A DNA stretch of 53,067 nt, the filler included, from Jimgerdemannia flammicorona (taxonomy: Eukaryota): the NCBI GenBank assembly GCA_003990765.1. It is 3 parts of 3 records of this genome, joined end to end, with 100 filler letters (N's around TTAATTAATTAA, not from the genome) between each part and the next. Parts side by side here need not be neighbours in the genome. Positions count along the whole stretch, not along the records: positions 35,454 to 53,067 come from RBNJ01002469.1; 2 more parts are not named here. One strand, written 5' to 3'. Both the position numbers and the translations under genes were made by a program. The notes below the pieces were generated by a model. That model was not told the DNA's origin. It searched no databases and saw nothing but the letters and a program-made list of their open reading frames with translations. Shown here piece after piece: positions 2,198 to 51,559 of this stretch; within the stretch, counting starts at the first letter, position 1; each line of letters begins with the position of its first letter.

Positions 2198-2651
2198 TAT
2201 AACATAGTGGATACTAAGATGGGCAAGTACGTTAGATTTCTTTATCTTGAATTCTTGTCTTCTTGACTTCCAGAGTCAATAGTTCCTTGAGGCTAAATGT
2301 GTTTAAGAAGTAATCCCAAAAGTCCCTTTATTGGTATATTTGTTCTTTTTCTAATACTTTCGATCTGAGGTTTATTCACTTGAAGATACTGGGTTATTTA
2401 TACAAGTTTGCTAGCTATGAGATGGCTACTGAGTTATGTGGCTAAGTTATGAGTCATTTAGACAATGTCTAGAAATTTAGATAATATCGAAATGCTATAC
2501 TAAATTGGGGTGTTTGATTTGGACAATGTCTAGAAATTTAGACAATGTCGAAATAAGCAACTGCTAACTATAAAACTATACTACTTTGGGAATGGTGCGA
2601 TCAAGTGTCTATTCCCTATTTCCTTCTTCCTAATTCGGCTATACTGTCACA
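2198..2651 (-). repeat. 3' LTR of the Gypsy element
   Basis: Near-identical to 8406-8859. Starts TGTGAC on the minus strand. TATAAATA (~2395-2402) followed by AATAAA (2371-2376) on minus. Duplicated ~37-bp motif containing the palindrome-like GACAATGTC (~2457, ~2518). Confidence 0.95.
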
Positions 2652-3150
2652 ACTTCCTCCTGAATAGATGGTCTTGTCTCTGAGACATCTATTCAAACTC
2701 CTATGCTTCAACTGTCTGTATGGTTTTGTACTGTTCAATTTGTTGCATGACTGTCTCCCAATGATGTCTCCTTATTTTATCAAAGTCAGTAGGGGTTACT
2801 CCTCGCAGGTGGACTAATGCTGATTCATCTTCTCAAAATAGCTTGTGGATCCTTTTGGCAATGGTGATCTATAAGTAGGAGAGTTGGCACTTTACGATCC
2901 AGTCTTCTTTGGTCTTTACTGGATCCTGGTTGAGCACCTGTCTGAGCTTGAAGTACTCTTGGAACTCTGCCTGATATTGGTAGGTACTAAAATGTGAGAT
3001 CTGAGAGAGATGAGTCTGCACAATACTCTGAATATCCTCATAGTATGCCTCTATGGTCGGAGGCTCAGTGGTGTGCCATTGTCTTTCAATAGCCCTTTGT
3101 GCAGTACTAGTGATCTTGAGTGCTGCTGCAGTGCTCTGGTTATTGGCCAT
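2647..3150 (-). pseudogene. Gypsy accessory ORF3 (~167 aa) of unknown function
   Basis: ATG at 3150. One frame MANNQST...FQEYFKLRQVL...IAKRIHKLF*EDESALVHLRGVT...HLFRRKL* runs through the PPT and ends at TGA 2649-2647 inside the LTR. The four internal stops are TAG/TGA, each revertible to CAG/CGA. Homologues elsewhere in the window. Confidence 0.8.
2652..2664 (-). promoter_or_regulatory. Polypurine tract
   Basis: Minus strand CAGGAGGAAGT immediately before the 3' LTR. Confidence 0.75.
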
Positions 3151-3239
3151 GGTACTTCTTGAGTCAGTTTCAGTGAATGGTGGTGGGGATTATTGTGTCT
3201 GAGGGCTTTCATAGTCGGAAAGTGGTCCCTTTTATATCT

Positions 3240-6200
3240 TACACCAGGTAAGGTCCTTCCTATTTAGGCTCCATTTTTTGTGACTAAGAGACTTCTACCA
3301 TATTCCAATATACTAGGACTTTATCTCCTATCTTGATAATCTTCAGGGGCTTGTGGGTTTTTTCTGCATTGCTCCATTGTAGTACCTACACCTTGATTAT
3401 ATAATCTTCTGCCTTTTTCCTAATTTGATGTAATCTCCATATCTCTGTATCCACATGCTTCCAGATTGCATCATTACCTACTGACAAACTTCTACCAGAA
3501 CCTTCTTCACTGAATAGTATTTCTCGTAGTGTAAAATAGGTACTTTGTGATCATATATCCCACAGAGTAAATAATGCTATTAGTAGATAGTGGTCCCAGT
3601 TTCCATATTCGTCACAGATCTTGGCAATGATGTTCTTGAGAGTCTTGTTGGTTCTTTCTGCTTATCCATTTCCTTATGGGTGATAGGCTGTGGTTTTGAT
3701 GTGCTGGATCTTGTACTTCTTATAAAGAACCTCATGGAACTGGTTGATGAATTCTGTTCCTCTGTCTGTAGTAACTTGCTTTGGAGTCTTGAATCAGCAG
3801 ATGATTTCTCTATGAAAGAAATCAGCAATTGACTGTGCATTGGCTTCCTTGAGGGGTCCAGCCTCTACCCATTTTGTAAATAGATCCACTATTACAATGA
3901 CATATTAGTTGCCAGTCAATGTCAGGGGTAGAGGGCCAATTACATCCATTGTAATATGGGCAAATGGTATTGGTTTGATATCTGCTGATCCAGGGGCTTG
4001 ATCCCATCAGTCTTATTTCTATTTCTAGCATTTGTTACAGGTTCTGACAAATTGTCTGATATCTTCTTCCATTCCGGGCCACCACATGGTTCTTTTTGCT
4101 TTGTCATACATATTTGTTCCTTCTACATGACTCTGTTCATATACTTCTTTCATCACTTGATTCTTCTGGTGCTCAGGAATGACTAATTGTTGTTCTTTCT
4201 TGAGTGTTTCTCCATCAGTTTCAAATTGTTTCCATGTCTGATTAATAATTGTTTTTGTCCATTCTTCCAGATGCAGGGGCATCTTTTGCTGCCCCAGATA
4301 GCTGATGATTCCATAATACAGCTCTCTATTCATGGTGATTTTGTAGGGGTGGGGTCCTTCAGAGTGTCTGTGAGAGGGCATCAGCATTGGCATTGGTTTT
4401 TTCAGGGCGGTGAGTGATCATGACATCGTATGCTTGCAGCTTCATGATTCATTGAGTATAGATTCCTTTGGGCTCACTGGTAGTGAGCAATCAGGTGAGT
4501 GCCAAATGATCTGTCTAGATGGTGAAATGTCTGCCAGCCAGATAGTAGTGGAACTTCTCCACAGCCCAGATGACTGCAAGGCATTCCAACTTGTATGATT
4601 TATAGGACTGCTCAGCTCCTCAGGTACCTTGGCTGAGATAAGCTACCATGTATTTGGCACCATTCTTCTTTTGTACAAGGACAGCTCCAAGTCCCATTGC
4701 ACTGGTATCCATCTGCAGAATAAACTCTTGAGTCCAGTCAGGTCTTCTCAGGATTGGGGCCTGGGTCAATCTGGTCTTAAGCTCGTCAAAGGCTAGTTGC
4801 TGCTGCTGAGTCCACTGAAACTTGACCTCTTTTCTGAACAGATCATAGATAGGACTGGCAATGTGGGAGAACCTTCTGATAAATCTTCTGTAGTAGGATG
4901 CAAGTTCCATGAAGGCTCAGGCTTCAGTGGTACTGGTAGGTACTGGGTATGCTGCTATTGCCTTGATCTTTGTAGGGTCTGTATGTATTCCTTCATGGTT
5001 GATGATATATCTAAGGTATGCGATTTCTTCTTCTCCAAACTTGCATTTCTTGGGCTTAATATAGAGGCCATGTTTGTGAAGCCTTCTGAGGATTTCCTCA
5101 ATGTGGTCCAAGTATTCTTTGACTGTTCGGCTGAAGATGATCATATCATCTATGTATACCATCATTCATTTCTCCATAACATCTCTGAAGATACTGTTCA
5201 TCATTCACTGAAAGCTTGCTGGTGCATTACACATTCTAAAGGGCATGCAGAGATAGACATAAGTTCCATCTGGGGTGATGAAGGCTGACTTTTTGCTGAC
5301 TTCAGGTGTAAGGCCAATTTGGTAGAATCCAGAGAACAGATCAAGAGTAGTGTAGAATTGTGCTTCATTCCCCAGCATGATAAGAATGTTGCCAATGTTG
5401 GGCAATAGTTGTCTGTCCTTTTCTGTGACCTCGTTGAGTCTTCTATAATCTATATAGAGTCTTGGTGCAAATTCTCCTGGTCGGCTTCCTTTCTTTGATA
5501 CAAGAATGATGGGGGAGGACTAAGGGCTGCTGGCTTCTTCAATAATACCAGATTCCTCCATTTCCTTGATCTCTGTCTTGAGCCATTCTCTGTATGCTGG
5601 TGGAATGGGGTGGGCCTTCTGATAGATTGGCTTTGCATCTCCAGTATTGACATCATGATAATACAAGAGTTTCTTGGTCTTGATATCCTTGAAATCCATG
5701 GCCAGTACATCCTCAAATATATGCAAGAGGCTCTGCAATTCTTCCCTAAGAGGAAAGTTTCTTCTGATTGTATAGGTGTGTTTGTCTTGGCTTTCCTCCT
5801 TCTTGTGCTCCAATTCAGTGATCTTAGTTGCTGTGAGGACTCCTCTTCCTGTAGAGCCGAATCCAGCTCTTCCTCATTGAGTTTGTCTGATGTTTGTGAC
5901 CTCCTTGATTCTTGGATTAAGGACAGGTAGGATGAGCATTTGCACCAGCCGATCCTTCTTCCTTACTTTGAATGAGATTGTTGGGTTGTGGTTCCTGATG
6001 AGGAGAAGGATTTCTCCAGTATAATCCAAATCAATGACTCCTCCTTTTATAGATATTTCACTCTTTGCCAAGCTACTCCTTGTCTTGAGGATTCTGACAT
6101 GATTTGGTGGGATGGTTACTTCAATTTCTGTTCCTAGAATGGTAGTGGTCTGCAGTTCAAGTATTGTGTATATTGTGGTAGATAAGTCCATTCCTGCTGT

Positions 6201-6930
6201 ATTCTCTGATTTGTATTGTGGCATGACTGCATCAGGGTGGATTCTTCGTATCTTGACTATGATGTCTTCTTCATCATTACTGTCATCCAATAGTTCTGGT
6301 GGTCTATCTTCTGATTCCTCCTGGTTCTTCTTTGGCTTATTAGTGATCTTCTTTATCTCAATGATCCAAGAGTAGCAGTGATCTAAGTACTGGGTACAGT
6401 ACATTCTTTCATCATGGGGGCACCTTCCTAGTGAGGCATATCTGTCTGCAATTCTTGTATACCATTCTTCCTCTGTCAATTGCTTGCCTTTTCCTTTCTT
6501 CATAGTAACCATATAGGCTTCTTCTTCTTGGTCTTCCTCCATCTCGGGGCAGACTCCTTTGTAGACATTGATGGGAATTCTGATCTTCTTTCCCCAGTAG
6601 ATGATCTGCATCTTCTGTGCACTGAGGTCAATCATGGCCTTGGCTTTGTGAAGCCACTGGTTGCCGATGAGGATATCATAGTTGGTTGCATTAGTGACAA
6701 TGACATCCACAGGAATAGTGGCTTCACCAAACTTGATTGGTACATCCTGGATTTTTCCCAAGAGTGTTGCTTGTATTCCATCAGCTGTGACAAATATCAG
6801 TTTGGTGGCTTCTTCTATCTCCCAGCCTAGGCGGTCTACTGCTTTCTTGGTAATGAGACATCCTCCTGCTCCCATATCAATAATGGCTTCGAAGACTTGA
6901 TCCTCGATCTGGCAGGTAGCATAGGCTGAT
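3240..6930 (-). pseudogene. pol: Gypsy pol polyprotein (aspartic protease, dUTPase, RT, RNase H, integrase)
   Basis: AIIDMGAG (DTG eroded to DMG, ~6880); TLDLFSGFYQI, MPF, VYIDD (RT); FILQMDTS..GLGAVL (RH); H..WWPGM..CNKC (IN zinc domain); MDVIGPLP, TDRGTEF, AYHP*GNG*AER (IN core, ~3960-3640). Confidence 0.93.
5850..6263 (-). pseudogene. dut: Trimeric dUTPase domain between protease and RT
   Basis: All five motifs are readable: AGMDL, TRSS, GVIDLDYTG, DRLVQM and *GRAGFGST, where the Arg codon CGA has become TGA. Confidence 0.9.
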
Positions 6931-6959
6931 GTTTTCCAATTATCTTCACTCTCTTCATC

Positions 6960-8306
6960 TGAATCTTCTTATGCATTATTGGCTTTGATTATTTTCCAAC
7001 CTTGGTCTTTGCCGATGTCTGAGATTCCTGTCCTCATTTGTTATCTGAATGTTGGGATTTCAGCCAGCTGGCCAAAGGTTGCATTGACCTTTTAGTCCTT
7101 GAGGTCCTTGAAGATGTCATACTTGAAGGTCTTGCTCTTGCGCAGTTTTTGCTCCTTCTTCCCTTCACTTGATGGAGTAGTATTTCGAATAATATCTTCT
7201 ACTGCTCACTCTAGCTCAGCATCTTGTTCTAGCTCCATTTCTTGATCAGCTTCACTCTGCTGGATCTCATTTCCAATGACAACTTCCAGTTACTTTGTTT
7301 GTATCTGGGTCTTCTTAGGAGGTCTGCCTGGAGATCTTTTGTAGAGACTGGATCAGACATCCTTCTTGCTTGAGGTAGTAGGGTAAGCTTCCCATTCCTC
7401 CCTCTCTTCCTCAGATTCTCCAATCTCCTCAAAGGTGATAGTGTTTGCCTGCTCATGGTTCCTGGTTGCATTGTTTGGATTGGCCTTTTGCTTGGTTTCT
7501 GTCATGCATTCGGAGGCATAGTGGCCTTCTTCTCCGCAGTTGTAGCATATTATGGATCATCTTGCATTTGTAGTGGCAAACTTCTATACTGGCTTCTTCT
7601 TGAACTCTTTGACTATGTCACTGAGGTGTGCAGTCATTTCTGCGAACTGTTTGGCCAGTTCCTCTATTGGGTCAACCCTTCTCTGTTCTTGTGATTGCGG
7701 TTGTGTATTCTGGTTAACTATGGTAGCCAGGATTGTATTGGTGACTCTTGGTGCTTGTTTGATTTTTACTCCAGTTATCCTTTCCATTGTATGGCCTTGA
7801 GGGTGTCTGACAGTCCAGTATCTTTGGGCATAGGTAACCTTCTGTCCCAGGTCCAGTGGTATTGGGGTAGATTGAATGGCTAAAGCAATTTCTTGGTGAA
7901 TACCTTTCATGAAGGTATTCTCAGCCACTTGGTCTTGAACTGTATCGGGATAGTCAGCGAGGACTATTTGGTGTCAGATTCTTGTGTAGAATGTATTTGG
8001 GTCTTCTGACATTCCTTGGCAGATAGTATTCAGTTGATCTTTGAGTGCCTGTTTGATTTCATCTGTGTAGTAGGTTATCTAGAGCCAGGCCTTGAAGGCC
8101 AGGATTCTTGCTGGATCGTCAGCTTCTTGTACATTAGCTGTGGTAAACGTAGTTCTTACTGGGCCTCAGAGGCTCACAGAGAGTAGGACTACTTGTTGTA
8201 CTGCCAATAAGGTTCTTATAGCAGCATACTGCTCGAAATCATCAATGAAGGTGATGATTGATTCATCAGAGGTATATCCATGGAATACAGGTGGTCTCAT
8301 ATCCAT
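6960..8306 (-). pseudogene. gag: Gypsy gag
   Basis: MDMRPPVFHGY...FIDDFEQYA capsid-like start. CCHC knuckle CYNCGEEGHYASEC at ~7506-7547. Multiple stops. Confidence 0.85.
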
Positions 8307-8386
8307 TCTGTCTGGTTGTGTTGTGTGGGTTCTGGTTGCAGTTGTTCATTGTTCAGCTTGAAAGTGAGGGATTCATCTTGAATCAC

Positions 8387-8402
8387 TAGCCAATGGGCAC
8401 CA
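8387..8402 (-). promoter_or_regulatory. Primer-binding site
   Basis: Minus strand TGGTGCCCATTGGCTA starts 3 nt after the 5' LTR; TGG is complementary to tRNA CCA. Primer tRNA not assigned. Confidence 0.7.
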
Positions 8403-8405
8403 AGT

Positions 8406-8859
8406 TATAACGTAGTGGATGCTAAGATGGGCAAGTATGTCAGATTTCTTTATCTTGAATTCTTATCTTCTTGACTCTCAGAGTCAGTAGTTTCTTGAGG
8501 CCAAATATGTTTAAGAGGTAATCCCGAAAGTCCCTTTATTAGTATACTTGTTCTTTTTCTAATACTTTCAATCTGAGATTTATTCACTTGAAGATACTGG
8601 GTTATTTATACAAGTTTGCTAGCTATGAGATGGCTACTGAGTTATGCAGCTAAGTTATGAGTCATTTAGACAATGTTTAGAAATTTAGACAATGTCGAAA
8701 TGCTATACTAAATCAGGGTGTTCGATTTGGACAATGTCTAGAAATTTAGACAATGTCAAAATCGGCAACTGCTAACTATAAAACTATACTACTTTGGGAA
8801 TGGTGCAATTAAGTGTCTATTCCCTATTTCCTTCTTCCTAATTCGGCTATACTGTCACA
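8406..8859 (-). repeat. 5' LTR of the Gypsy element
   Basis: 454-bp direct repeat of 2198-2651, differing mostly by transitions. Confidence 0.95.
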
Positions 8860-16995: not shown

Positions 16996-17359
16996 TAGTG
17001 CTCCCAAATAAATTGAATCAAATTGAGGGTCATTCAAATTGTATTGAATTGGGGATTTTTCAATTTGAATTAAGTTTGAATTGAATCAAATTCAAATTGA
17101 ATTGAGGGTCTGATTTGAAACCTATTTTTAGAAATATAATAACTCGACAAATATACATCCAAATTCAATGATCGTTAGCTTGTTAGATTCCCTTATATAA
17201 GAGGAATCTAACAAGCTAAAGATCATTAAATTTAGATGTGTATTCATTGAGTTATTTAATTTCTAAAAATAGAGTTTGAATTGGACCTCAATTCAAATTG
17301 ATTTGAATTGAATTGAATTTGGGTCCAATTCGATTTAATTTGATTCATTGGGAGCACTA
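16996..17359. mobile_element. Palindromic hAT-type MITE, copy 2
   Basis: TIR TAGTGCTCCCAA...TTGGGAGCACTA. 8-bp TSD cttaagaa / cttgagaa. Confidence 0.92.
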
Positions 17360-22945: not shown

Positions 22946-23252
22946 ATAAAATAGAAAATATTTCAATCTAGATTAAATTCAAATTAAATTGAGATCTGAT
23001 TTATTTTTATTCATATTTAATTCAATTTAAGGTTGAAAGTCAAAATTTAAAATATAATAACTCAACAAAAATATGTTCAAATTTGATGATCTTTATTATG
23101 CTAAATTTTCTAAATTGGGCTGAAATTTGGACATATTTTTATTTAGTTATTAAATTTCAAAAATTTATATTTGAATCCAAATCAGAATTGAATTGAATGG
23201 AATATTTCGAATCCAATCAAATTCAATTCAATTCGATTTGTTGGGAGAACTA
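22945..23252. mobile_element. Related palindromic MITE (sister subfamily, left end lost)
   Basis: Right end TTGGGAGAACTA. Shares AATTGAATT-type subterminal repeats and the ATAACTCAACAAAAATATG inverted arm, but has a different centre. Confidence 0.7.
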
Positions 23253-28823: not shown

Positions 28824-31800
28824 CAGGCTATGTCGAGTTCAATCCTGGATTGAGGATTAATTGATAAAGAGCTATCAATCAATTTAATTCTCTACTACTT
28901 CAATCTTCAATCAAGTTAATTTAAAGAGATCAATCTGCTTAAATAGATTGATAGATTGATATATATAGATATACTCAGATAGAAAAAACTTACTATATGT
29001 AAAATGTAAGTACAAACTGATATAGATAAGTATTTACTATATATAATAATATAGATATATCTAAATACATATGTCTCTATCTTTTTAAACTATAAATATG
29101 AGCACTCAGCTGATGCAGCATATGGATCCAGTGGTAGATGATCTTGTATTGAATCTAGGAAGTATATATGGAGTTGAGGATTCCAGTTTCAAGAGCCAAA
29201 GCACAATTCCTGATGCCAACAAAGATGATGTATATAAGGACATCAACTGGTTATGTCTATCTAACTATCAACAGCCATTTAGACCCCTGAAAGGAAAGAA
29301 AAAGAGCTGGGTATAAGAGCATAGATATATGGTTTAAGAAAGAGATACAAATAAAGACAAGAAAAAGATCTTCTGAGTCTGCAAATACTGTCACCAGGCA
29401 TGCTATTGTAATGAGCATATATACATCTGTGACCTCTCTACTAGCAGTGCTATCAAGTATCTTATATGCTCTGATATCAAAGATCATACTATTAGTAAAG
29501 ACATGTCTCTCCAGATAAGCTAGAAGCAGAAGTATACTATACTCAAGCAGCTTCAAGAATGCTACTACATTTCTCAGAGTGTAGCAAATACACTTCTATC
29601 AACTTATATACCACAGATTTTCAAGCAGAAGATACTTAAATAGATTACTGCCAGAAACCACTCTCTTTGAGAAGTCAAGACTCTAGAATTTCTAGAGATG
29701 ATCACTATAGTAAATCAAGATATGGTTAATGATATATCTACCAAACCATCCATAATTATATCTTATAGAAATATAAAAGTTATGAGGGAGTTTTGACAGA
29801 GGTATTTGCCTCTACAGAGTTGAAGATTTATATTTTATTTAACAACTGGTCAATATATAGCCAGTAATATACTATCACTGACATCTGCATCTATTTCCTT
29901 ATAGATACTGGGAAGATGATCAACTTCCTTATCTCAATGCCAAAGCTCCTTGGTTGATATTCAGAGTATAATAACTCTGAACTTATCTCTATCACAATTA
30001 TAAAATACAATATTGTAGACTGACATAGCTATAGTATCTCTGATAATTATAAAGTAAATAATATATATATCTGGCATCTTACAGAAGAATTTGAATTCAG
30101 TCTAAAGGAATACTATATTCACTATATTGTTTATATCATCAACCTTATAGTACAGGTACTACTATTTGGTATAGATAAAGACTCCTTTAAAAATGAGACA
30201 GAGAATATTTCAGAAGAATAAAAGTTCCTAAAGGAGTGGCAGCAAATATTTAGGAATATTGATTGACCTCATTGACCATTATAATACTCTACAGCATCAT
30301 CAGCTATTAGTGCAGTTCTAAGAGGAGGGGAATACAGCTCATTTATCCTTAAACTTCAAGGTTTGGGAGCTATTTAGGCCAATCAAAACTAGATGGAATA
30401 GCTATCTTGATGTATTTCATTATATACTACAGCTATATAGTCCATTGGATGCATATGCATAGTACTGGATCAATGGGTACTATTGCAAAATTATCACATA
30501 GAAGAGGTTAAAGAAAAAGAGAAAGAAAGTAGAGATCTTAAAGCCACCACACTTTATTAATGCTAGAGGCCTTAGCTTATGACTGAGGTGTCATCTACAG
30601 CTATGTGAAGCTTCTGCAGCCTTTGAAAGAAGCTACAAAATGCATTGAGGCTTGAGATGGACTATCTATTGAAGATATTTGAGGATACAAAGGAGCATAT
30701 CACAGAAGCTACTCAGAAGGAGTTCCCAGACCAGCTACCCATAGAGAACTATAATAAAATCAATATTAACAGAGCATAGAGTAAGCTGAACCACTACTAC
30801 ACACTGCTCAATGACTTACCAGCATACTATGCAGTAGTAGTACTATATTCAGCTCTTAAAAGATACTGTACCAATATATGGAAAGATCAACCAGAATAGC
30901 TTATCAGTAGTGAGACTACATTCAAGAGGCTTTGGTTTACATATAAATCTCAGCTACTAAATTAAAGCCTGCTGCACTGCATGCAGCAGCCAGCACCCAG
31001 AATTAGTGCTCCCAATGAATCAAATTGAATTAAATTGGACCTAAATTCGATTTAATTTGAAAACTTCAAATTGAATTGAGGCCCAATTTGATTCAAAGTC
31101 TAATTCAAACCCTATTTTTAGAATTTTAATAACTCGACGAATATACATCCAAAGTCAATGATCTTTAGCTTGTTATATTCCTCATATATAGAGGAATCTA
31201 ACAAGCTAATGATCATTGAATTTGGATGGGTATTCGTCGAGTTATTACATTTCTAAAAATAGGGTTCAAATCAGACCTACAATTCAATTTGATTTGAATT
31301 GATTCAATTCATTTTGGAGCACTACCCAGAATGATGTCAGCTTTTACTGTTCATTTACCAGCGACAATACTGAGGCATATGATGATGAGATCAATGAATA
31401 TGAGTAGTAGAAGGTGAGGTATTCAGTTTCTATAGACAATGAGAGTATAAATGACTTTATTCAGTAGTGGTGGTTCCAGCATGCTGAATTTCCACATCTT
31501 TGCCATATGGCAATGGATATTCTTACTATCCTAGCTGCTAGTACTGATGTGGAAAGAGCTTTTAGCAAGACTGGTGACTTGCTAGAGCTCTGCTGCTTAT
31601 AGCTTGAGTTGGAAATACTTGGTATACTATAGTGTTTAAGAAACTGGAGTTGAGCTGAAATAGTAGACTAGTAATAGTAGCAGTAGCAGTAGTAGTAGTA
31701 GTAGCAGAAGTGGGAGGACTATGTAGTATATATAGTTATGAATACAATTCAAACTGTAGCAAAGTGGCTGATACTACTTATTGTACACAATGTATATATC

Positions 31801-35453: not shown

Positions 35454-36920
35454 CCGAGAGTGTCACCTACCACCTAACCGCGCCGCACCAATCAAAAGGC
35501 CCCACCGAAGCAGCACCTGCCCCAGCCCCGATGACCGCCCCCAGCCTGGCACCCTACTGGTTCACCGTAATCGCCCTTCCGCCTATCTGTGATGGCCACC
35601 TCCCCTCCCATCCCGACAACACCCGAAAAACAGTCACCTACGCCAGAACCGCGCTCGCCGGGAAGCTCGCCAAAGCCAGAGGGCCCCACCACAGGTACCG
35701 AGGACCTGCAGGTAACCTATACTGAGCACTTGACGCCCAAGGTCGGCCGACTCCCTACGTAGCCCGAGACATACCGAGACAACTCCTTGTTGGCGACGGC
35801 AAAAGGAAGAAGGCGCCACACCAAAATGGGTACACCCCAGACGCAGCTGAAGGCACCAGAATCTGCGAAAAAGTGGAGGAAGCACCGATCCGACACCGAT
35901 AAAAGGGCAACTCATCACCATTGCCCTCCTCCCACCATGCCCCTACAGGTACAGCAAACCAACCCGAGGTAGAGGGGGTAATATTAGGGGAAAGGGAACT
36001 CGGAAGGTCGCCTACCAAACCTTGTGACCGGTAAGGTAGCGGAGAAAGGAGCTGTCCGAAGGGCAAAGAAAAACCCTCATCAAAGTACAATACAGTGGGT
36101 AGGGCCTGGTTCTCCCAGTTGAGATGAGTAAAGAACTTACACATGAGGTAGGAGGAGACCCCCAATACCCCACTACTCAAGCCTGTAGGCCTCGATCACA
36201 TTGCTGTATCAGCTCCCAGTTCCAGTTGAGTGCAGCCAAGATGCCTGAAATGGATAGCCTCAGGCCTCCTGACCCCCCCTGATGACTGGGGCCCAACCCC
36301 GCTGACTGCCAAAAGAAGCTGATAGTGACACCTATCACCTAACCATGCTACACCAATCAAAAGGCCCCACCGAAGCAGTACCTGCCCCAGCCCCAATGAC
36401 CGCCCCCAGCCTAGCACCCTACTGGTCCACTGTTATCGCCCTTCCTCCTATCTATGATGGCCATCTCCCCTCCCATCCCGACAATACCTGAAAAGCAGTC
36501 ACCTACACCAGAACCATGCTCGCCAGGAAGCTCGCCAAAGCCAGAGGGCTCCACCACAGGCACCGAGGACCTGCAGGTAACCTACACTGAGCACTTGACA
36601 TCCAAGGTCAGCTGACTCCCTATGTAGCCCGAGACATACCGAGACAACACCTTGTTGGTGATAGCAAAAGGAAGAAGACACCGCACCAAAACAGATACAC
36701 TCCAGATGCAGCCAAAGGCACCAGAAACTGCGAAAAAGTGGAGAAAGCACTGATCCGACACTGATAAAGGGGCAACTCATCACTATTGCCCTCCTCCCAC
36801 TATGCCCCTACAGGCACAGCAAACCAACCCGAGGTAGAGGGGGTAATAATAGGGGAAAGGGGACTTGGAAGGTTGCCTACCAAACCTTATGACTGATAAG
36901 GTAGCAGAGAAAGGAGCTGT
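35454..36920. repeat. GC-rich direct repeat, period 865 bp (35454-36055 vs 36319-36920)
   Basis: About 602 bp align at offset 865 at both ends. Differences are mostly transitions. Confidence 0.92.
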
Positions 36921-37340
36921 GCGTGAATGTCTCTGATACTTATTTAATAAGTATGGAAGTCCTGATAAATGATCTCCATTGGCTAATGTGTGCGTCCTTA
37001 TGGGTCATTCATGTGGCCCTTTTCTTTCTCTACTCCTTTTTTTTGTTTGGCATCGTACATTCTTCCATGTCCCTTGGTCTTGAATACAAAAACTCTGGGA
37101 AATGTTCCACATCGGCTGGGTGTGCGTGGCGAGCGGGCTAACAGTGAGCAATGAGCGAGTAGTGCGGTTGATGGACTGGTGGTGTGGGGTGAGCGGCAAG
37201 CGATGGTTGAAGCTGATGTACTAACAGACGATGCTGTTGAAGGATCTTCCTCCGGGTTATCTCTTTGGGTCTTAAGCACACCAATTGGGCATATGGTGAT
37301 TTCAAGGCAGTGATGTCTAGTAATTATCAATGCTATCTAT

Positions 37341-38836
37341 TGTAACGGTGACCCCAGAATGATGACATCAGCACAGGAGACAGCCTTTCTTTACAAGCCA
37401 CCAGATCAGAGTACAAGAAGATCATATGGCATGTGAGATGAGCAACGATGACCAACTGTGAGTCATTGTGACTACAGCACAAGCATTCTGAAGAATATAA
37501 AAGAAGGATCAAGGAACCGCAGTAGCAGCAACCAACAAGAACCCCAATCTCAAAATAGCTCAAAGACTTACCACAAACAAAATGCCTGCTGCCCGCCAAA
37601 CCTCAAGGTCAAGGAATCATCAAGGTATCTCGGTCGAGGAAAGGATGTTTCAAGACATCAGAAGAGCCATGAGGACCCGCTCAAGAAGGACTCCTAGCAT
37701 CAACCTGGGTACTGCAGACCCTTATCACTTTATCCTCTACCGCCGTGAAATGGAAACAAGGATCACCATTGCCACCGAATGCCTCCAAATGTGGCAGGAG
37801 TACGAAATAGGAAACCTCCTCTGCTGGGAGTTCCCACAGGCCAGCCCTCAAGAGCTACAAGATGCCACCCCCATAGACCTACGTGAGGCAAGGATAGCAA
37901 AGAAGATCCATCAGATCTTCAGGCATGCACCATGGTCGATCCCCAACTTGGAGTCTCAGACTTCAGAGACCTGTCATCCCGCCGCATCAATGCACTAGAA
38001 GCCAGGGTAGCTACAGAAGCCCAGTCCGCCATCACCCTCAACAGCGAAGAAGTAGAAGACTTCTGGCACCCTATCCTTCAGGACAACCCAGACCAATTTC
38101 TGCAAGGGTTGATCTCAGTATTCCAAGGCCCAAGCATCCAGGTCAGACCTCCCCAGGACCCCACATTTGTCCCTTACTTTGTGGAAGAGAACCTCATAGA
38201 CTGGAGAGCTCCAGATTTTGTCCCCGATTTCCCCGCCGAACGTGATGACGTCATCGGCGATGACGTCATCCCGCGCGACATACACGAAGTACGCGAAACA
38301 CGCGACCTGCATGAAGAGTTCGCGGATCTCATCTCCTTCAGTGATGATGATGATGAAGCTCCCATGATCCTGAACTTTCTGCTCTAAAAAGTTCTTTGTT
38401 ACACTGGATAATGCCAGCACCAGTATTCTCATGTAACACTGGATAATGCCAGCACCGGTATTCTGAGGTGACACGAAATTGTTCCAGCATCGGCATTTTG
38501 ATGTGATACTAAATAATGCCAGCCTTGGAACTTAGTAGTTTTAGTTATTGGAATTTATATTTAGCTTTATATCTTAGCAACTATTGAATTATATTTTGTA
38601 TAAATACCTCTCTTATTTCCTCTGAAATAAAGTCAGTTCTATCCGGTTCACTTACACACTTCCTTGCAAGCAATCTAAGAGATAACAAGACAGTTAAAGA
38701 TAAGAAGTTTGAGGACTATAAGACCTTGGGAAGGCACTCTAATAAGAACTTGCTTATAACAACTTGAATTAGTCTAAGAGATACACCTTGAAGAGAATCT
38801 GGCATATTTGAAGGACTCAGCGACCACTACGTGACA
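37341..38836 (+). mobile_element. 1.5-kb solo LTR (Gypsy-type) with an ORF in U3
   Basis: TGTAACG...CCACTACGTGACA ends; the 3' end resembles CCACTACGTTATA of the 454-bp LTR. 4-bp TSD CTAT. TATAAATA 38599-38606 then AATAAA 38626-38631. ~35-bp duplicated motif at ~38398-38465. Confidence 0.85.
37582..38387 (+). pseudogene. U3-encoded ORF3-family protein, one frameshift near 37950
   Basis: WQEYEIGNLL...IAKKIHQIFRHAPWSIPNL / GVSDF...PILQDNPDQFLQGLISVFQGP...NLIDW. Aligns with 49060-50079 and 2647-3150. Confidence 0.8.
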
Positions 38837-39284
38837 CTATCTAAGCCAACCCATAATACAATTTCCTTCTCAACTACTCGCAAGAGCCATCCTACCTCCG
38901 ATATGGTAACATGTTTATTCGCCATTATGTACATAGGACACGCCACAGGAAATCGCAACCAGAAGTTTGTCACCTTCCAGCCCGCAATCTCATCAATAAA
39001 CAACTTGTGCATCAGGGCTCCAATCGAGCCGCCGAGCAGGCCGCATACATATGCCGATACGTCTTTCACCTACCACACGCAATAATAATATCATTATTAT
39101 TAATTTCATAACCATTAACAGCAGATGAAGCAAGAAACAAGTACATGTATATACACATCGAACCAAGCAAAACATATCCCCACCGCACTAACCTGAGTCA
39201 CGCTCTCTCTCTACTTCCCATATCCCCTCCCCTTTCTGCCTCCAGCATCCTTTCTGATATACTCCTCCTCTGATACCACCTACA

Positions 39285-39548
39285 ATACCACCTCACCAAC
39301 ACCACCTCACCAACACTACCTCACCAACACCATCTCACCAATACCACCTCACCAACACCATCTTACCAACACTACCTCATTAATACCACCTCACCAACAC
39401 CACCTCATCAATACTGTCTCACCAATATTACCTCCTCACCAATGCCACCTCACCAACACCACCTCACCAATATCATCTCACCAACACTGCCTCATTAATA
39501 CCACCTCACCAACACCACCTCACCAATACTGCCTTACCAACACCACTC
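39285..39548. repeat. 14-bp minisatellite (ACCACCTCACCAAC)n, about 19 units
   Basis: Direct reading; unit variants are mainly C-to-T. Confidence 0.9.
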
Positions 39549-39579
39549 TCAATTTAAGAGTAATAACCCCTATGCTCCA

Positions 39580-40860
39580 TCACGACGCGTCCCTCTGCTC
39601 TTCTGAACTTTCACCTTCGCTCCCAAAGAACTCATCCATTAATGCTCTACAACTCCACAATGCGTAGACACAGTTCACGTGCCTCGCCGCGACGGTATGC
39701 GGGCCCCATCCGAAGAGGGTGAGTGCGGAGGCCGTGGCACGGATGCGCGGATCGACGATAGTGGGGTCGGCGATCGTGATGATGTCGAGTTGATCGGCAA
39801 TCTGCCGAGAAATAAGAGGAGCAGATTGAAGCTGATTAAATCTGGAACCACGGTACGACCAAGGCGAGATGCAGAACATGGACGCGCGGGGTTTACCAGT
39901 GGATGTGTGGTGACCGGTAGCTGGTCACCGATCTTGAAGCGGGGCCGACGTTGGGAAATGTGTAAATTGAGGCTGAGTGGTTTAGTGGATGAATTCATAA
40001 AAAAATAAAAAATAAAAATAAAAGATTGTTAATGAAATCATATTCGAAATTAAACGCTGAATTCCAACCCAACCGTGACCATGAAATTCCAAATCTATTC
40101 CGATTTACCATAAACATTCTTTAACCCCTCCTCAATCATTAATTCTTCCACTTTACTTCTCTTCCCAACCATCGAAAAGAAGCTCCCAAACAGCCCAGCC
40201 CCTTACTCACCATCGCAAGGATAGTCTCGCCACGAACACGGCTGTTCACGCGATGTGCTCAGCTCCACCTTACACTTGGCCGTCAATTCTTCGCCTACCG
40301 CAACCAAAAGACAATAACCGTTCCCCACCCATGACCAAGTAATCCACTCAAATATCCAAGCTAAACGTGGACGCCTATTCACGCCTCTCCCCTCCGCCTC
40401 GTCTAGATATGCGGAAATCCGCTGGCGGAGCAGAGTGCGCACCGCAAACGCTCAGACGCGACGTTGATCCAGCCGTAGCGCGTGCAGTCGACGGGTGTAA
40501 TAGGCCTATCGAACCAGGTCTATCCGTGGGCAGAACGGTCAAGGACGGATGTCGTGTTGGATATAGGAAAGAGAGACGAATGTGTGCGCAAAATAAATAG
40601 AGGAATGCGAATTTTGTCGATGCTTTATAGGTCACCAAACGCGCCATAAAATAGCTCCGATCCCATTGCCGGTACCGGTTCAGCGGGTGGACGGGAGGAC
40701 AAGACTCCTGTGAGGACGTATATATATATATCAAGCAGTAAATGATTCGATCGCTTTGCACTGACAAACACGACAAGATAAAGCTGTGAGACCTACTTTG
40801 GACCTCCGGCAGAACTGCCCCGCTCGTGATATCGAGTTTCCGTTTCGTGACCCATTGGTC
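39580..40860 (-). pseudogene. zf-C3HC / Rsm1 (Pml39, NIPA/ZC3HC1-like) pseudogene with introns
   Basis: Ordered exon remnants TKRKLD; YRQWDRSYFMARLVTY; TWFDRPITPVDCTRYGWINVASERLRCALC; EELTAKCKVELSTSREQPCSWRDYPCD followed by a GTGAGT donor; ASALTLFGW. Premature TAG at ~40404, a missing donor and His-to-Arg at a zinc ligand. Confidence 0.82.
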
Positions 40861-46150: not shown

Positions 46151-48853
46151 GGTAAAAGCAACGCACCTTTGAAACTGAAAAAATGAATTTAAATACAAAG
46201 CCGACGTTGTGATTCCACGTGCTGACATCGCTTATGGTACCAAGACAACCTCCTGTTATTCAATAATCAATAATCTGCCAAAAAGCACAAATGCACAGAC
46301 CCGAAAAGGCAGCTGGTCAGATGGCTTCTACATATATGAATTCCAATACTAGTCGGAAGAAATACACAAAAAATTAAAAAATAAAAAATCAATCGGTTCT
46401 TTTGATCCCGATAAGCGAAGTCCTCAGCGGTTCCTTTTCATTTCCATCGGAGCTACCCAAAGGCCGTTGACTTGACAGTCGAGGGCGCATGTCGAGGCAA
46501 ACTCTGTCCCGGAGGCTAGGGCAAGCAAGTCACTAATGAGGAGATAATGCTAAAAGTTGGCTTAGTGTCATTAAGCAAAGAATAGTATGAAACACGCGAC
46601 GGGTATCATACACCTTGGGTGTAGTTACGGGTGTGTGCAGTAGTCCTGGTGTGCGTTTGCGCGGCTCCTTTAAGCCAACGGAATGTTGCCAACACATCGA
46701 AAATCGCCTAAGCCTATCCATAGCCTTGAATGGCGGTTCCATTTGGGTTCGTATTGCAGTAACTTCAGTGCTAACCTTTCCATGCGTTAAGAAAATGGCA
46801 GAATTCAGGAACTGTTCCACAAATAGAAAAAACCATACGGAACGATCAAATATAAACCTCGAACTTAACTGTAACGCCACACACAGTTTTAAGTCCTTAC
46901 GCATTCAGACTCAGTGGCGTTGTGCAAGCGACCTTTGTTTTGGACCTCGCCGACCAAGTGTATCACGTGTCATATAGATACGAACAACGTTACTAGCGCT
47001 AGTGTTGTCCCCTACAATCATGACAATGTCATGAGATTCGTCAACACCCTATCGTTCCACGTCACTGAACAGCGAGCAACTACATTTAATGTAGGCGACA
47101 ACGTAAACGTCACTTCGTGAGTATGGTTTTATGTGAAAAAAGACCGAGTGTCAGCGCACTTATCGTACTCTTCTCTTCCAGCGACTTAATAGATTTAATT
47201 GTACCTCATGACTGACGAGGCCTTTATTAAAAGCACAGGAATTTCGCTGTTGGCAAGTCAGTCGTTCATGCTTTCTAGACAAGATTGACCATTATCCTTT
47301 TTAAGTTCTTGTCTAAGTGTATATGTCAAGTTCTACTGTTTATTGTACCCCGTAATGGAAGTAGGGCCCGGTTCGGACTTTACTTTGATACTTCCCTACG
47401 GGATTATCATATTGTCAACACTAATGCGGAAACAAATTTCAGCATAGAAGCGACCTTTGTTTTTGGGCCTGACTGATCTGGTGCATCATATGTCAAGTAA
47501 ACAAAAACCACGTTACCAGCAGCCACTGTCGCGAACTATTTGACCAATTCTCACCTTCTCCATGAAATTTGCTATGAAATTCATAAGTTTCGTCATCACC
47601 CTATCGTTCCTCGCCTCTTCTTTGATCATGTCCTTCTTCTTGTTTAGTAATTGTCTCAACTTGAAATACTCTTGAAACTTGGCACAATTCTGATAGACTC
47701 TAAAGTGTGAAATACATGATAGGTAGATCTGTATGATATTTTGAATACTATCAAAGGAATCCTCCATAGCTGGTAGCTTAGTAGAACACCATTATTTTTC
47801 TATAGCTGCTGGGCAGCACTTGGGATCTTGAGGGCCAGAGCAGTATTTTATTAGTTAGCTCTAATACTTCTTGAGTCAGTTTCAGTAGATAGTAGTGAGA
47901 GTGATTATGTCTGATAGTTTTCATAGCCAAAGGTAGTTTCTTTTATATTTTGTATAAGGTAAGGTTCTTCTCATTTAGGCTTCAGTTTTTATGACCATAA
48001 AGCTTCTACTATATTTTGATATATTAGAACTTTATCTTCTATCTTAATAATCTCTGAGAGCTTGTAGATCTTCTCTATATTATTTTATTATAATTTCTAT
48101 ATCTTAATTATATAATTATCAGCCTTTTTTCTTATTTGGTACAATCTCTATATCTTGGCATCTATGTATTTCTATACTATATCTTTATTAGATAATAGCA
48201 TTTCTTTAGAACTTTCTTCTCTGAACAGCAATTTCTGAGAGATAAAATGGGTACTTTGTGATTATATATTCTGGAGAGTAGATAATACTATTGGCAGATA
48301 GTAGTCTCAATTTTTATAGTTATTACAGATCTTAGCAATAATATTCTTGAGAGTCTTGTTAATTCTTTCTATCTGTCTACTTCTTTAAAGATAATAAGCT
48401 ATGGTTTAAATGTACTAAATCTTGTACTTCTTATAAAGAATCTCAAAGAGCTAATTCATAAATTCTATCTCTCTATCTATCATTACTTGCTTTGAAGTCT
48501 TGAATTAGCAGATGATTTCTCTGTAAAAGAAATCAGCAATTGACTATATATTGACTTCTTTAAGAGATTCTACTTCTATTCATTTTATAAAAAGATCTAT
48601 AATAATAATAATATATTAGTTATCAGTCAATATTAGTAATAGGGAACTAATTATGTTTATTGAAATATGGGCAAATAGTACTAATTCTATATCTACTGAT
48701 TCTGGTATCTAATTTTATTAATCTTACTTCTGTTTCTAGTATTTGACATAGGTCTTGACAAATTATCTGATATCTTTCCCTATTTTAGATCACTATATTG
48801 TTCTTTTTATCTTGTTATATATATTTATTTCTTCTAGATAGCTAAGTTCATAT

Positions 48854-51255
48854 TGTGACGTACACAATTGACAATGGAGTACTGGTGACTGCTAAGGTCA
48901 GACGACATAATGGCGTAACAATCAAATAGACAGCCTGACCCATTAGGTGATCATCCCAAAGAAGACAAGATGATCCGAGCCAAAATGAAGACCACGTTAT
49001 TTAAGGAACCATACCCCACTTCAGGGATCGGCACCAAAGAACCAAGTACCCACCACACAATGCCTCCCACTCGCTGAACCAACCAGACCTCCCGCTGCTC
49101 TACCCCTCTGCCTGGCCCAAAGACCCTGATCTTTGAAGCTATCAAGAAGGCCATTTGGCACCCAGATACTTCCGAACACTTGAACTTCTACACCGAGGAC
49201 CTTGGACACTTCATTAACTACTGGTATATAATGACCCAACAGCTCAAAGACACTACCGAACGAATGACCCTCTGGCATGACTATGAAATCGGACACTGCC
49301 TTCGCAATGAGACTCAAGAAGATGACCGGGAAGGCCTCATTACCGAATTGATAACCACTAGCCGGCTAATCAAGAGAGCCCTCCGTGTCCACCAAATCTT
49401 CCACCATATTCCCTGGGCCATAGCACACTTATAAGGAGTAACGACTGGCAGCCTTTCTCGCCTTTCAACTGAAGATGCTGACTGGATAGAATCTGAAGTA
49501 GCCAACTCTATTGGCAGCAACCATGTCGCTGTAGGAAGTCAACAAACCGAACCTACTCAACCAGGTTTCCATACCACCCCACTCCGAGACAACCATCAAG
49601 GTCACCTAATGAGCCTTATGGAGATGTTTGAAGGACCACCCATTACTATAGAAGCACCTGTTGGAGCTACCCCTACCACCCACCACCCTGTCAGCTACAA
49701 TTCACATCTCATCATTTGGGAACCGAATCAAGAAGAAGCCCAAGAGGTCCCTGTCTTTAAAGAGGAAGCCCAAGAACTCCAAGACCCTGCCCCTGAAGAA
49801 ACCCCCTCTGACACCGAAACTGACAAGCCTTCAGAAGAAGAAGAGGAGCAACAGAGAGTCTACTAGTCCTCTGTCCGCATTCAAGCTGTTCAAGGGTTGG
49901 AGAATGTTGTTGAAGATGACTGGCCACTTTTCTACCCCCTCACCTCTTGGCCGGCACTTCCCCCTTTTGAGGAGAGGTATGATGAAGAAGAAATCTTAAC
50001 CCAGCAAGATTTGCCTGCCGCAGACAAAGGGTACTATTTCCTCTAGAACCACCACCTGTCAGCCATGAGAATTGTGTAGCCTTCATGTCAGCAAGTCTGA
50101 ATCCAGCATTACCACCCACAACATCCATATCCAGCACTAGCACTCATCTTATTCCTATTCGGCGCAAACAATTGTCACACCCATTTCCAGCGTTGCTATC
50201 CAGTGCCACCGTTTTCAGCGTTTTGTCAGTAAGTCCGAATCCAGCGTTACCACCCACAACATCCATATCCAGCACTGCTATCCCCTACAACCCAATCCGT
50301 AGTAAACAATAGCCTGCACCTCGCATCATGCAAACCAATAGCATAAGTTCGCCACAACGTAGTATACTTTAACCTTAGCTGCACCCATAGCTAGCAAACT
50401 TGTATAAATAACCCATATTCTTAGAGTGAATAAACCTCAGTCAACTGGTTTTGAGAAATAACCACTGCCTCCAAGAGACCAGATAAATTCTGAGAACAAG
50501 ATAACTAGAGCAATGATCGCTTGAGGTTTGAGTTAAAGAATTTTCTCTTGCTACGGAAAGAAAGAAAACATTACCCGACCACCGCCATTCGACCACCGCC
50601 ATTCGAGACCCAAGTTACCCAGCCAAGGATTCAAGACCACGGACCGCCCGCCAATTTTGCTGCCATGAAAAGGATTCAAGACCACAGACTGCCCGCAATT
50701 CAGTCAGTTTGTGTTTAAAGAAAACGTTACCCGACTGCCACCATTCAGACCGCTATTCGGACCGTGCAATTCGACCGCCATTCGAGGTTCAAGACCCGGA
50801 AACCCAAGGATACCCAGCCAAAGGATACAAGACAGCTGCCAAAGACCCGAATGACTGCCAGGAACCTAACAAGTTAAGACGGACGAGCAAGCCGTCAACC
50901 TCCGTTTTTCCAAGCTACTGCGCCACGAACCGCTTAAAGTCAAGACCATCGCCCACTTTAATTGACCGCATAACGAGCAAGCCCGTCGTCGCCGAGTTTG
51001 CCGCCAAGTTAATCACTGCCAGGAAACTTAGCCAGCACAATCAAACGACCTCATCCACTAAACAATTGAGCCACCATCGTTGAACAATGGAAGTCCTGCT
51101 ATTCTATTATCAATTGCCGCATGAATCGAACGACCTGTCACGTGACCATCGACCTGCGAACGTCACCAACGCACTCAGTTATACATCGCGTGCTTCACCA
51201 AGTGGCATACATTGAGCCGTGCAGTCAAAGTTCATTATACATAACCAATGCCACA
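48854..51255 (+). mobile_element. 2.4-kb solo LTR (Gypsy-type) with an ORF in U3
   Basis: TGTGACG...TGCCACA ends with 4-bp TSD ATAT. Core GCAAACTTGTATAAATAACCC...GTGAATAAACCTCAG (~50394-50440) is nearly identical to the TATA/poly(A) core of the 454-bp LTR. ~52-bp duplication at ~50087/~50226. Confidence 0.88.
49060..50079 (+). pseudogene. U3-encoded ORF3-family protein with acidic C-terminus
   Basis: Single frame from ATG 49060: WHDYEIGHCL...RALRVHQIFHHIPWAIAHL*GVT...PLRDNHQGHLMSLMEMFEGPP...HLIIWEP. Stops are revertible C-to-T changes. True end uncertain (49866, 50046 or 50079). Confidence 0.8.
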
Positions 51256-51559
51256 ATATACTGACTTCATTGTATATTCCTTCTTATACTCTGATATAAC
51301 TGGTTGTTTTTCTTTTTTTAGTATTTCTCTATAAGTTTTAAATTGTTTTCAGGTTCTGTTGATAATTATTTATATCTATTCTTCTAGATATTGAGGCATC
51401 TTTCACTATCTCAGATAGATAATAATTCTATAGTAAAGTTCTTTATTTATTTTAGTTTTACTGATTATAAGTTCTTTAAGATATCTGTAAGAGTATATCT
51501 ATATTTGTATTGGTTCTTTCTGAGTAGTACATAATGGTTATTTTATAAACTTGTAGCTT

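Follow-up and report, generated by a model that had tools for sequence, protein, structure and literature searches.

Long terminal repeats (LTRs) are ordinarily non-coding, and a described departure from this rule is mouse mammary tumour virus (MMTV), whose sag gene lies mostly in the U3 part of the LTR (PMC4667437). Foamy viruses carry accessory open reading frames (ORFs) at their 3' end that are driven by a second promoter, and the LTR promoter is activated by one of the products, Tas (PMC3185757). Retrotransposons are known to bear additional ORFs, placed between pol and the 3' LTR, some of them nuclear, with their own promoter and suspected of being regulators (PMC7264820, PMC11963269, PMC5408684), and these include the env-like ORFs of Athila and Bagy2, gene23 of Grande, TRP28 of Retand, those of RIRE2 and Boty and the ORF3s of rotifer elements. 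Long LTRs are described for Ogre (PMC6431247), published drawings of some fungal elements show an additional ORF whose function is unknown (PMC2864245), and CERV of the C. elegans element Cer1 is an accessory protein that controls the expression of a Ty3/gypsy element (PMC10309623). Here we analyse a window of 53,067 nucleotides (the whole stretch of DNA, filler included) from Jimgerdemannia flammicorona, in which a solo LTR of a Ty3/gypsy retrotransposon, family A, carries in its U3 a gene that we call ORF3. This accessory gene is common to at least four retrotransposon families of the genome, and lies in U3 in families A and B and internally, just before the polypurine tract (PPT), in families C and E.

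The closest known layout, judging by the arrangement of the sequence, would be that of MMTV sag, in which, as in A and B, a complete gene lying mostly in U3 is copied into both LTRs, and for which a promoter inside U3 has been described. In contrast, sag encodes a retroviral membrane protein whose targets are T cells, and ORF3 a small helical domain, the families described here are Ty3/gypsy retrotransposons without env whose relatives keep the gene internal, and neither the A nor the B protein matched the sag protein family, or any other Pfam family, at E<=1. The foamy virus genes Tas and Bet, 3' accessory ORFs of which one reaches into the LTR, provide a model for the function proposed below; Tas lies outside the LTR, unlike ORF3 of A and B, and no sequence or fold link to ORF3 emerged. 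The additional ORFs of retrotransposons resemble ORF3 in being conserved, in lying at the 3' end and in being common to distant reverse transcriptase (RT) lineages, but they are described in the internal region, whereas the gene of A and B lies inside the LTR, and they have no Pfam family in common with it. CERV, which is made from a spliced mRNA and acts on RNA export, is likened to ORF3 as an accessory protein of a Ty3/gypsy element. A dUTPase between protease and RT is shared by family A with PosPlaTy3-5, Tmt1 and the Phanerochaete elements (PMC2864245), and from such dUTPase-bearing fungal Ty3/gypsy elements family A differs in its coding LTRs of 2.3-2.55 kb, its 4-bp target-site duplication and its preference for ATAT. 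In the literature searched, whose scope did not extend to most subscription papers and Repbase-type records, a whole gene in U3 was not found in any non-retroviral element.

The locus is composed of the following features.

48854..51255, + strand: 2402-bp solo LTR with TG...CA ends, Ty3/gypsy family A
48850..48853, + strand: left copy of the target-site duplication ATAT
51256..51259, + strand: right copy of the target-site duplication ATAT
47616..48853, - strand: decayed older host element left of the insertion (integrase and start of ORF3), 71% identical to 2903-4142
51256..51400, - strand: host integrase right of the insertion, 75% identical to 4163-4283
50086..50276, + strand: U3 repeats downstream of the ORF and before the main TATA box, with a 53-bp direct repeat and several CCAGC motifs
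50386..50440, + strand: TATA/poly(A) core of 55 bp, with TATAAATA at 50403 and AATAAA at 50429
50441..51255, + strand: R/U5 region, repeat-rich, CpG not depleted, with between-copy variation far above that of U3

The stretch 48854-51255, which starts with TGTGAC and ends with GCCACA, is a solo LTR left by the LTR-LTR recombination of a Ty3/gypsy element within an older integrase. Its flanks are collinear with element 2198-8859, the left one matching up to 4142 and the right one resuming at about 4139, which amounts to a 4-bp duplication, and one contig of run X1 (contig type uncertain) joins both flanks without the insert and represents the empty-site form. It is these collinear flanks that carry the insertion argument, because the ATAT match alone is weak evidence in a family that prefers ATAT targets: ATAT is found at 17 of the 28 family A flanks, and the chance of a matching pair is ~0.42. 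The first-pass annotation, which had read an ATAT duplication and a clean insertion into an older integrase, is borne out on this point, as it is on the near-identity of the TATA/poly(A) core with that of the 454-bp LTR of 2198-8859 (91% and 89% identity with its two LTRs, E 1e-15) and on the size of U3, given as ~1.5 kb and here ~1.55 kb from the positions of TATAAATA and AATAAA, the U3/R border being inferred from these motifs. It went too far in assigning both elements to the same system, since the RT-RNase H regions of family A and of 2198-8859 share only 45% identity and since the core is found in run X1 on many contigs with unlike flanks, and is therefore common to several LTR families. 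Between A copies, R/U5 is 77-81% identical, as against 94-97% for the leader, the ORF and the promoter core, and its CpG observed/expected ratio is ~0.7-1.1 as against 0.2-0.45 in the ORF. A 183-codon frame at 50532-51083 is listed in the window copy alone among the A loci.

Full-length elements bearing this LTR, which the first-pass annotation had called for, were recovered by a genome search that yielded 1390 candidates, 40 of them scored and 30 fetched. The fetched copies comprise ten 5' LTRs directly followed by the primer site TTTTGGGGGCTCAACTGGG, nine 3' LTRs preceded by the purine tract GCAAGGGGCAGA (the PPT), nine solo LTRs, eight of which are bounded by an exact 4-bp duplication, and two incomplete copies. 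The tRNA-Pro(AGG) of the genome has a 3' end complementary to this primer site. One full element of 13 kb (G000:C409) has two 2553-bp LTRs, 92.2% identical, in which transitions make up 195 of the 199 differences, and a target duplication that matches at three of four bases. The interior order is gag, protease, dUTPase, RT, RNase H and integrase; RT, RNase H and dUTPase scored above the Pfam cut-off on A loci and gag and protease weakly (E 0.04-0.05), and the integrase match was obtained on a B locus. Family A is a high-copy Ty3/gypsy family with 4-bp ATAT-type targets and a tRNA-Pro primer site. The duplications of A and B are 4 bp long with a strong (A/C)TA(T/G) preference (loci L001-L030 and L041-L065), and TA-rich 4-bp targets are common to A, B and C. 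In G000:C409, protease, dUTPase and RT of pol are separated by long inserts that lack annotation and contain Cys/His clusters, and gag is extended at its N-terminus by a long stretch.

The U3 gene of family A is organized as follows.

48970..50046, + strand: U3 ORF, 358 codons from the ATG at 48970 or 329 codons from the ATG at 49060
49243..49515, + strand: conserved helical core, with a long helix, a two-helix unit resembling a helix-turn-helix (HTH) and three short helices, from the alignment and an AlphaFold model (pLDDT 81.9)
49564..49725, + strand: second conserved block, found in A, B and E and absent from the 153-aa C form
49726..50043, + strand: acidic C-terminal region, net charge ~-10 per 40 residues

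The whole ORF lies within U3, between the LTR start and the TATA/poly(A) core; the N-terminus of its product is basic, and the ATG at 49060 aligns with the start codons of B and E. The earlier description of an ORF3-family gene with an acidic tail holds for the family similarity and has to be amended for the gene itself, which extends beyond the acidic run to a stop codon at 50044-50046 and is interrupted by in-frame stops at 49075, 49432 and 49864. With these three stops the window copy is dead. Stops are found in 87 of the 114 scored A copies and the ORF is free of them in the remaining 27.

Two relatives are present in the window.

37341..38836, + strand: solo LTR of family B, 1496 bp, target-site duplication CTAT
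37582-38387, + strand: U3 ORF of family B, frameshifted in the window copy
2692..3150, - strand: internal ORF3 of family C (element 2198-8859), 153 codons, ending ~40 nt before the 3' LTR

Family B is a true LTR family, of which copies flanked by the primer-binding site and copies flanked by the PPT were both found. Family E was found via the homologue P0007, with 118 scored matches; its element is 9.2 kb long with 807-bp LTRs, a 5-bp duplication (one element checked) and a chromodomain-type integrase end, and its internal ORF3, of the long form with an acidic tail, has a stop codon that abuts the PPT. At the DNA level the coding LTRs of A and B give no blastn match, the best local match being 17 nt, while the proteins of stop-free copies align with 29% identity over 231 aa (z=26; HHalign 98%), so that the earlier observation of unalignable DNA and alignable proteins stands and the protein alignment is significant both by shuffling and by HHalign; with the window's broken copies z falls to 20 and 7.6. 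The other pairwise z values are 32 for A-E, 65 for B-E, 8 for B-C, 6 for C-E and 2.6 for A-C, and a profile built from A, B and E scores the C ORF3 above all 2000 shuffles (E 1e-4). Judged by sequence comparison, the U3 ORF of A and the internal ORF3 of 2198-8859 are true, if distant, homologues. In public metagenomic data 22 diverse representatives match the ORF3 family, and ten of these homologues, when looked up, proved to be unnamed or hypothetical and to fall in clusters of 1-6. Searches of the genome itself with the distant homologues P0040 and P0017 returned B and C only (16 loci inspected), and no longer fused ORF3 form (600-2000 aa) was found among 4049 candidates, which is weak evidence. 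In family C the end of the integrase frame and the start codon of ORF3 overlap, and the integrase seems to be a separate frame starting after RNase H (window positions 3150 and 4333, minus strand). The 3' part of the B ORF contains two TGACGTCA palindromes (window 38246-38268), which we take to be CRE-like, and similar decayed motifs are found in the U3 of E.

The selection at the protein level that had been proposed for these ORFs is supported by a dN/dS (the non-synonymous rate divided by the synonymous one) of 0.17 for the subfamilies of B compared with each other and of 0.15 for those of C, and by the conservation of the protein between A and B in spite of saturated synonymous sites. The signal is weaker in family A, with a median dN/dS of 0.46 over 351 pairs, and there the singleton changes look neutral and the shared changes constrained (p=0.02). 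These data point to purifying selection on ORF3. A non-functional passenger ORF, kept open through recent amplification, would agree with the stops in most A copies and with the neutral singletons; it is largely refuted by the dN/dS values between subfamilies, by the conservation across saturated sites and by the 22 diverse homologues, and we regard it as most improbable.

Concerning the way in which the gene came to lie in U3, the RT-RNase H regions are 64% identical between B and C, 44% between A and B, 45% between A and C and 37-40% between E and the others, and the ORF3 proteins 42% between B and E, 35% between A and E and 29% between A and B. ORF3 groups B with E and RT groups B with C, each rejecting the grouping of the other (approximately unbiased test, p=0.0004 and 0.001), with several long branches in the ORF3 tree; these trees indicate that the history of ORF3 differs from that of RT. 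The earlier proposal of a move between the internal region and U3 by a shift of the PPT/U3 boundary is right in that the gene occurs on both sides of the PPT, but a plain shift did not emerge, the two trees being in conflict, and module swapping appears to fit better. In the model that we propose, a 3' module consisting of the spacer, ORF3 with its own TATA box and the U3 promoter would be exchanged between distant families by template switching, and wherever the ORF3 promoter came to lie downstream of the junction or of a new PPT, the gene would be copied into both LTRs. The swap is argued for in B by the conflict between the trees and by the resemblance of its PPT and ~60 nt upstream to the PPT and ORF3 stop of C (score 35, against a mean of 24 and a best of 32 in 100 shuffles): B would be a C-like body that has kept its own PPT and has been given an E-like 3' module by template switching. 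The non-coding DNA is likewise a mosaic: the TATA/poly(A) core of B resembles that of E (0/200 shuffles), the spacer of A resembles that of E (see below), and the promoter core of A is ~90% identical to that of C. It weighs against this model that B matches the A spacer nearly as well elsewhere (34; best shuffle 34).

The competing explanation is a pure relocation of the PPT in one lineage, whereby, without any exchange between families, a new purine tract upstream of ORF3 takes over plus-strand priming and U3 gains 1.2 kb. Over 257 nt the integrase-to-PPT spacer of A shows 78.6% identity to the spacer that precedes ORF3 in E, with a match that ends ~40-90 nt before the PPT of A, the E ORF stop abuts the E PPT, and A and E have spacer, ORF3 and promoter in the same order, so that a new PPT upstream of the gene may be envisaged for A. 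However, the A-E similarity beyond the PPT of A is marginal (12/500 shuffles; 197/500 within the LTR), the collinearity of the A U3 leader with the E internal leader is not significant, no relic PPT was found behind the U3 ORFs of A and B, and neither the C-like PPT of B nor the conflict between the trees is in favour of such a relocation, which we hold to be possible but doubtful. An ancient duplication of ORF3 followed by differential loss may also be considered. The integrase-to-PPT spacers of A, B and E contain the motif GTTCGAACC (L028 ~1342, L107 ~768 and L065 ~1284, oriented), which is absent from the one C locus checked; it resembles a polymerase III B box or a tRNA T loop, and no tRNA was called around it in 3 loci.

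A U3 gene needs a message of its own, since U3 precedes the main promoter in the 5' LTR and sits at the distal end of the genomic RNA. A candidate promoter is present in family A.

48998..49004, + strand: TATA-like box TATTTAA, 62 nt upstream of the ATG at 49060, a putative promoter for the U3 gene

This box is found in 30/30 A copies and is the sole pure A/T stretch of the A leader; its position is the same as that of TATAAATA in E and of TATAAAA in B, the latter being found upstream of the B ATG in all 29 loci with an anchor (33 tried), and E has TATAAAT in 22/22. Invariance within a family has to be discounted, since it is expected when decay is C-to-T, and the argument rests on the shared position and on the sole pure A/T stretch. 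With the TATA-like box upstream of the ORF and the AATAAA of the LTR downstream, each LTR, the solo ones included, could be a complete transcription unit.

Weak but converging leads suggest that the ORF3 product is a dimeric HTH protein with an acidic tail. The predicted helix order fits a ParB-type or DUF3102 HTH, towards which the weak structural and language-model matches point, none of them significant, and the N-terminal domain of ParB is lacking in ORF3. Sequence searches of PHROGs and the PDB, like those of Pfam, gave no significant match, and Foldseek found none at E<=0.001 among the PDB and viral models, a missing match not being proof of a new fold. An env-like protein was rejected on the basis of a soluble helical core with an acidic tail, of the lack of a Pfam match and of the absence of any long hydrophobic stretch on inspection of the sequence, with no dedicated transmembrane predictor run. 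The reading that we favour, by analogy with Tas and with a confidence about evenly divided, is that of a homodimeric HTH self-regulator that switches on the main LTR promoter. With a long dimerisation helix, a ParB/DUF3102-like HTH and, in A, B and E, an acidic tail, the protein would bind the repeats of its own U3 and activate the main LTR promoter. The HTH-like leads, a predicted dimer and the TATA-like box of the gene itself lend indirect support to the idea of a transcriptional activator, which the first-pass annotation had offered as speculation. The CCAGC motif, with 5, 4 and 1 copies in A, B and E, does not make a compelling common binding motif.

Other functions have to be weighed against this self-regulator. 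A small helical accessory protein with a basic N-terminus could instead be a post-transcriptional factor that binds the element RNA and promotes its nuclear export, like retroviral Rev or like CERV, the precedent in a Ty3/gypsy element (PMC10309623), but both the Atlas leads and the fold leads are to HTH families that bind DNA, the acidic tail better suits transcription, and we consider this function unlikely. We give similarly little credit to an anti-silencing factor which, like VANC of the VANDAL transposons (named in PMC13547354), would bind the element repeats and keep them unmethylated: the copies decay nearly all by transitions, and the R/U5 region retains CpG and has fast-diverging repeats, though its CpG content may be its starting composition. 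A repressor for copy-number control, or an integration cofactor that tethers the integration complex to TA-rich targets, seems quite unlikely. ParB-type HTH domains also act in non-transcriptional DNA binding, and TA-rich 4-bp targets are common to A, B and C; yet E, whose ORF3 is closest to that of B, has a 5-bp duplication and a chromodomain-type integrase end, which argues that target choice follows the integrase and not ORF3.

Elsewhere in the window, a 300-bp palindromic AT-rich repeat resembling a miniature inverted-repeat transposable element is present in four copies (1104-1424, 17033-17359, 22974-23252 and 31001-31311), GC-rich direct repeats of 603 bp, 90% identical, adjoin a scaffold gap (35456-36058 and 36321-36923), and a 14-bp unit with a CACCTCACCAA core is arrayed at 39235-39588 in ~17 or more copies.

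In conclusion, LTRs are treated as non-coding, with MMTV sag as the standard exception, and solo-LTR formation is treated as the genome's route to deleting element genes. In two separate RT lineages of non-retroviral elements we find a selected gene within U3, and their relatives hold it internally; this natural series lends itself to the questions of how the boundaries of U3 shift and how 3' modules are exchanged. Could such elements own a dimeric HTH transcription factor of an otherwise prokaryotic or phage type, in an own-promoter cassette that passes from one distant RT lineage to another and enters U3, with hundreds of solo LTRs acting as free-standing regulator genes that activate or unsilence the family in trans? 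We put this forward very tentatively, as more probably wrong than right. If solo LTRs were such free-standing regulator genes, their formation would no longer remove coding capacity; if ORF3 were a DNA-binding self-activator, a Tas-like control circuit would exist in a retrotransposon, and the role of additional ORFs would receive a testable answer.
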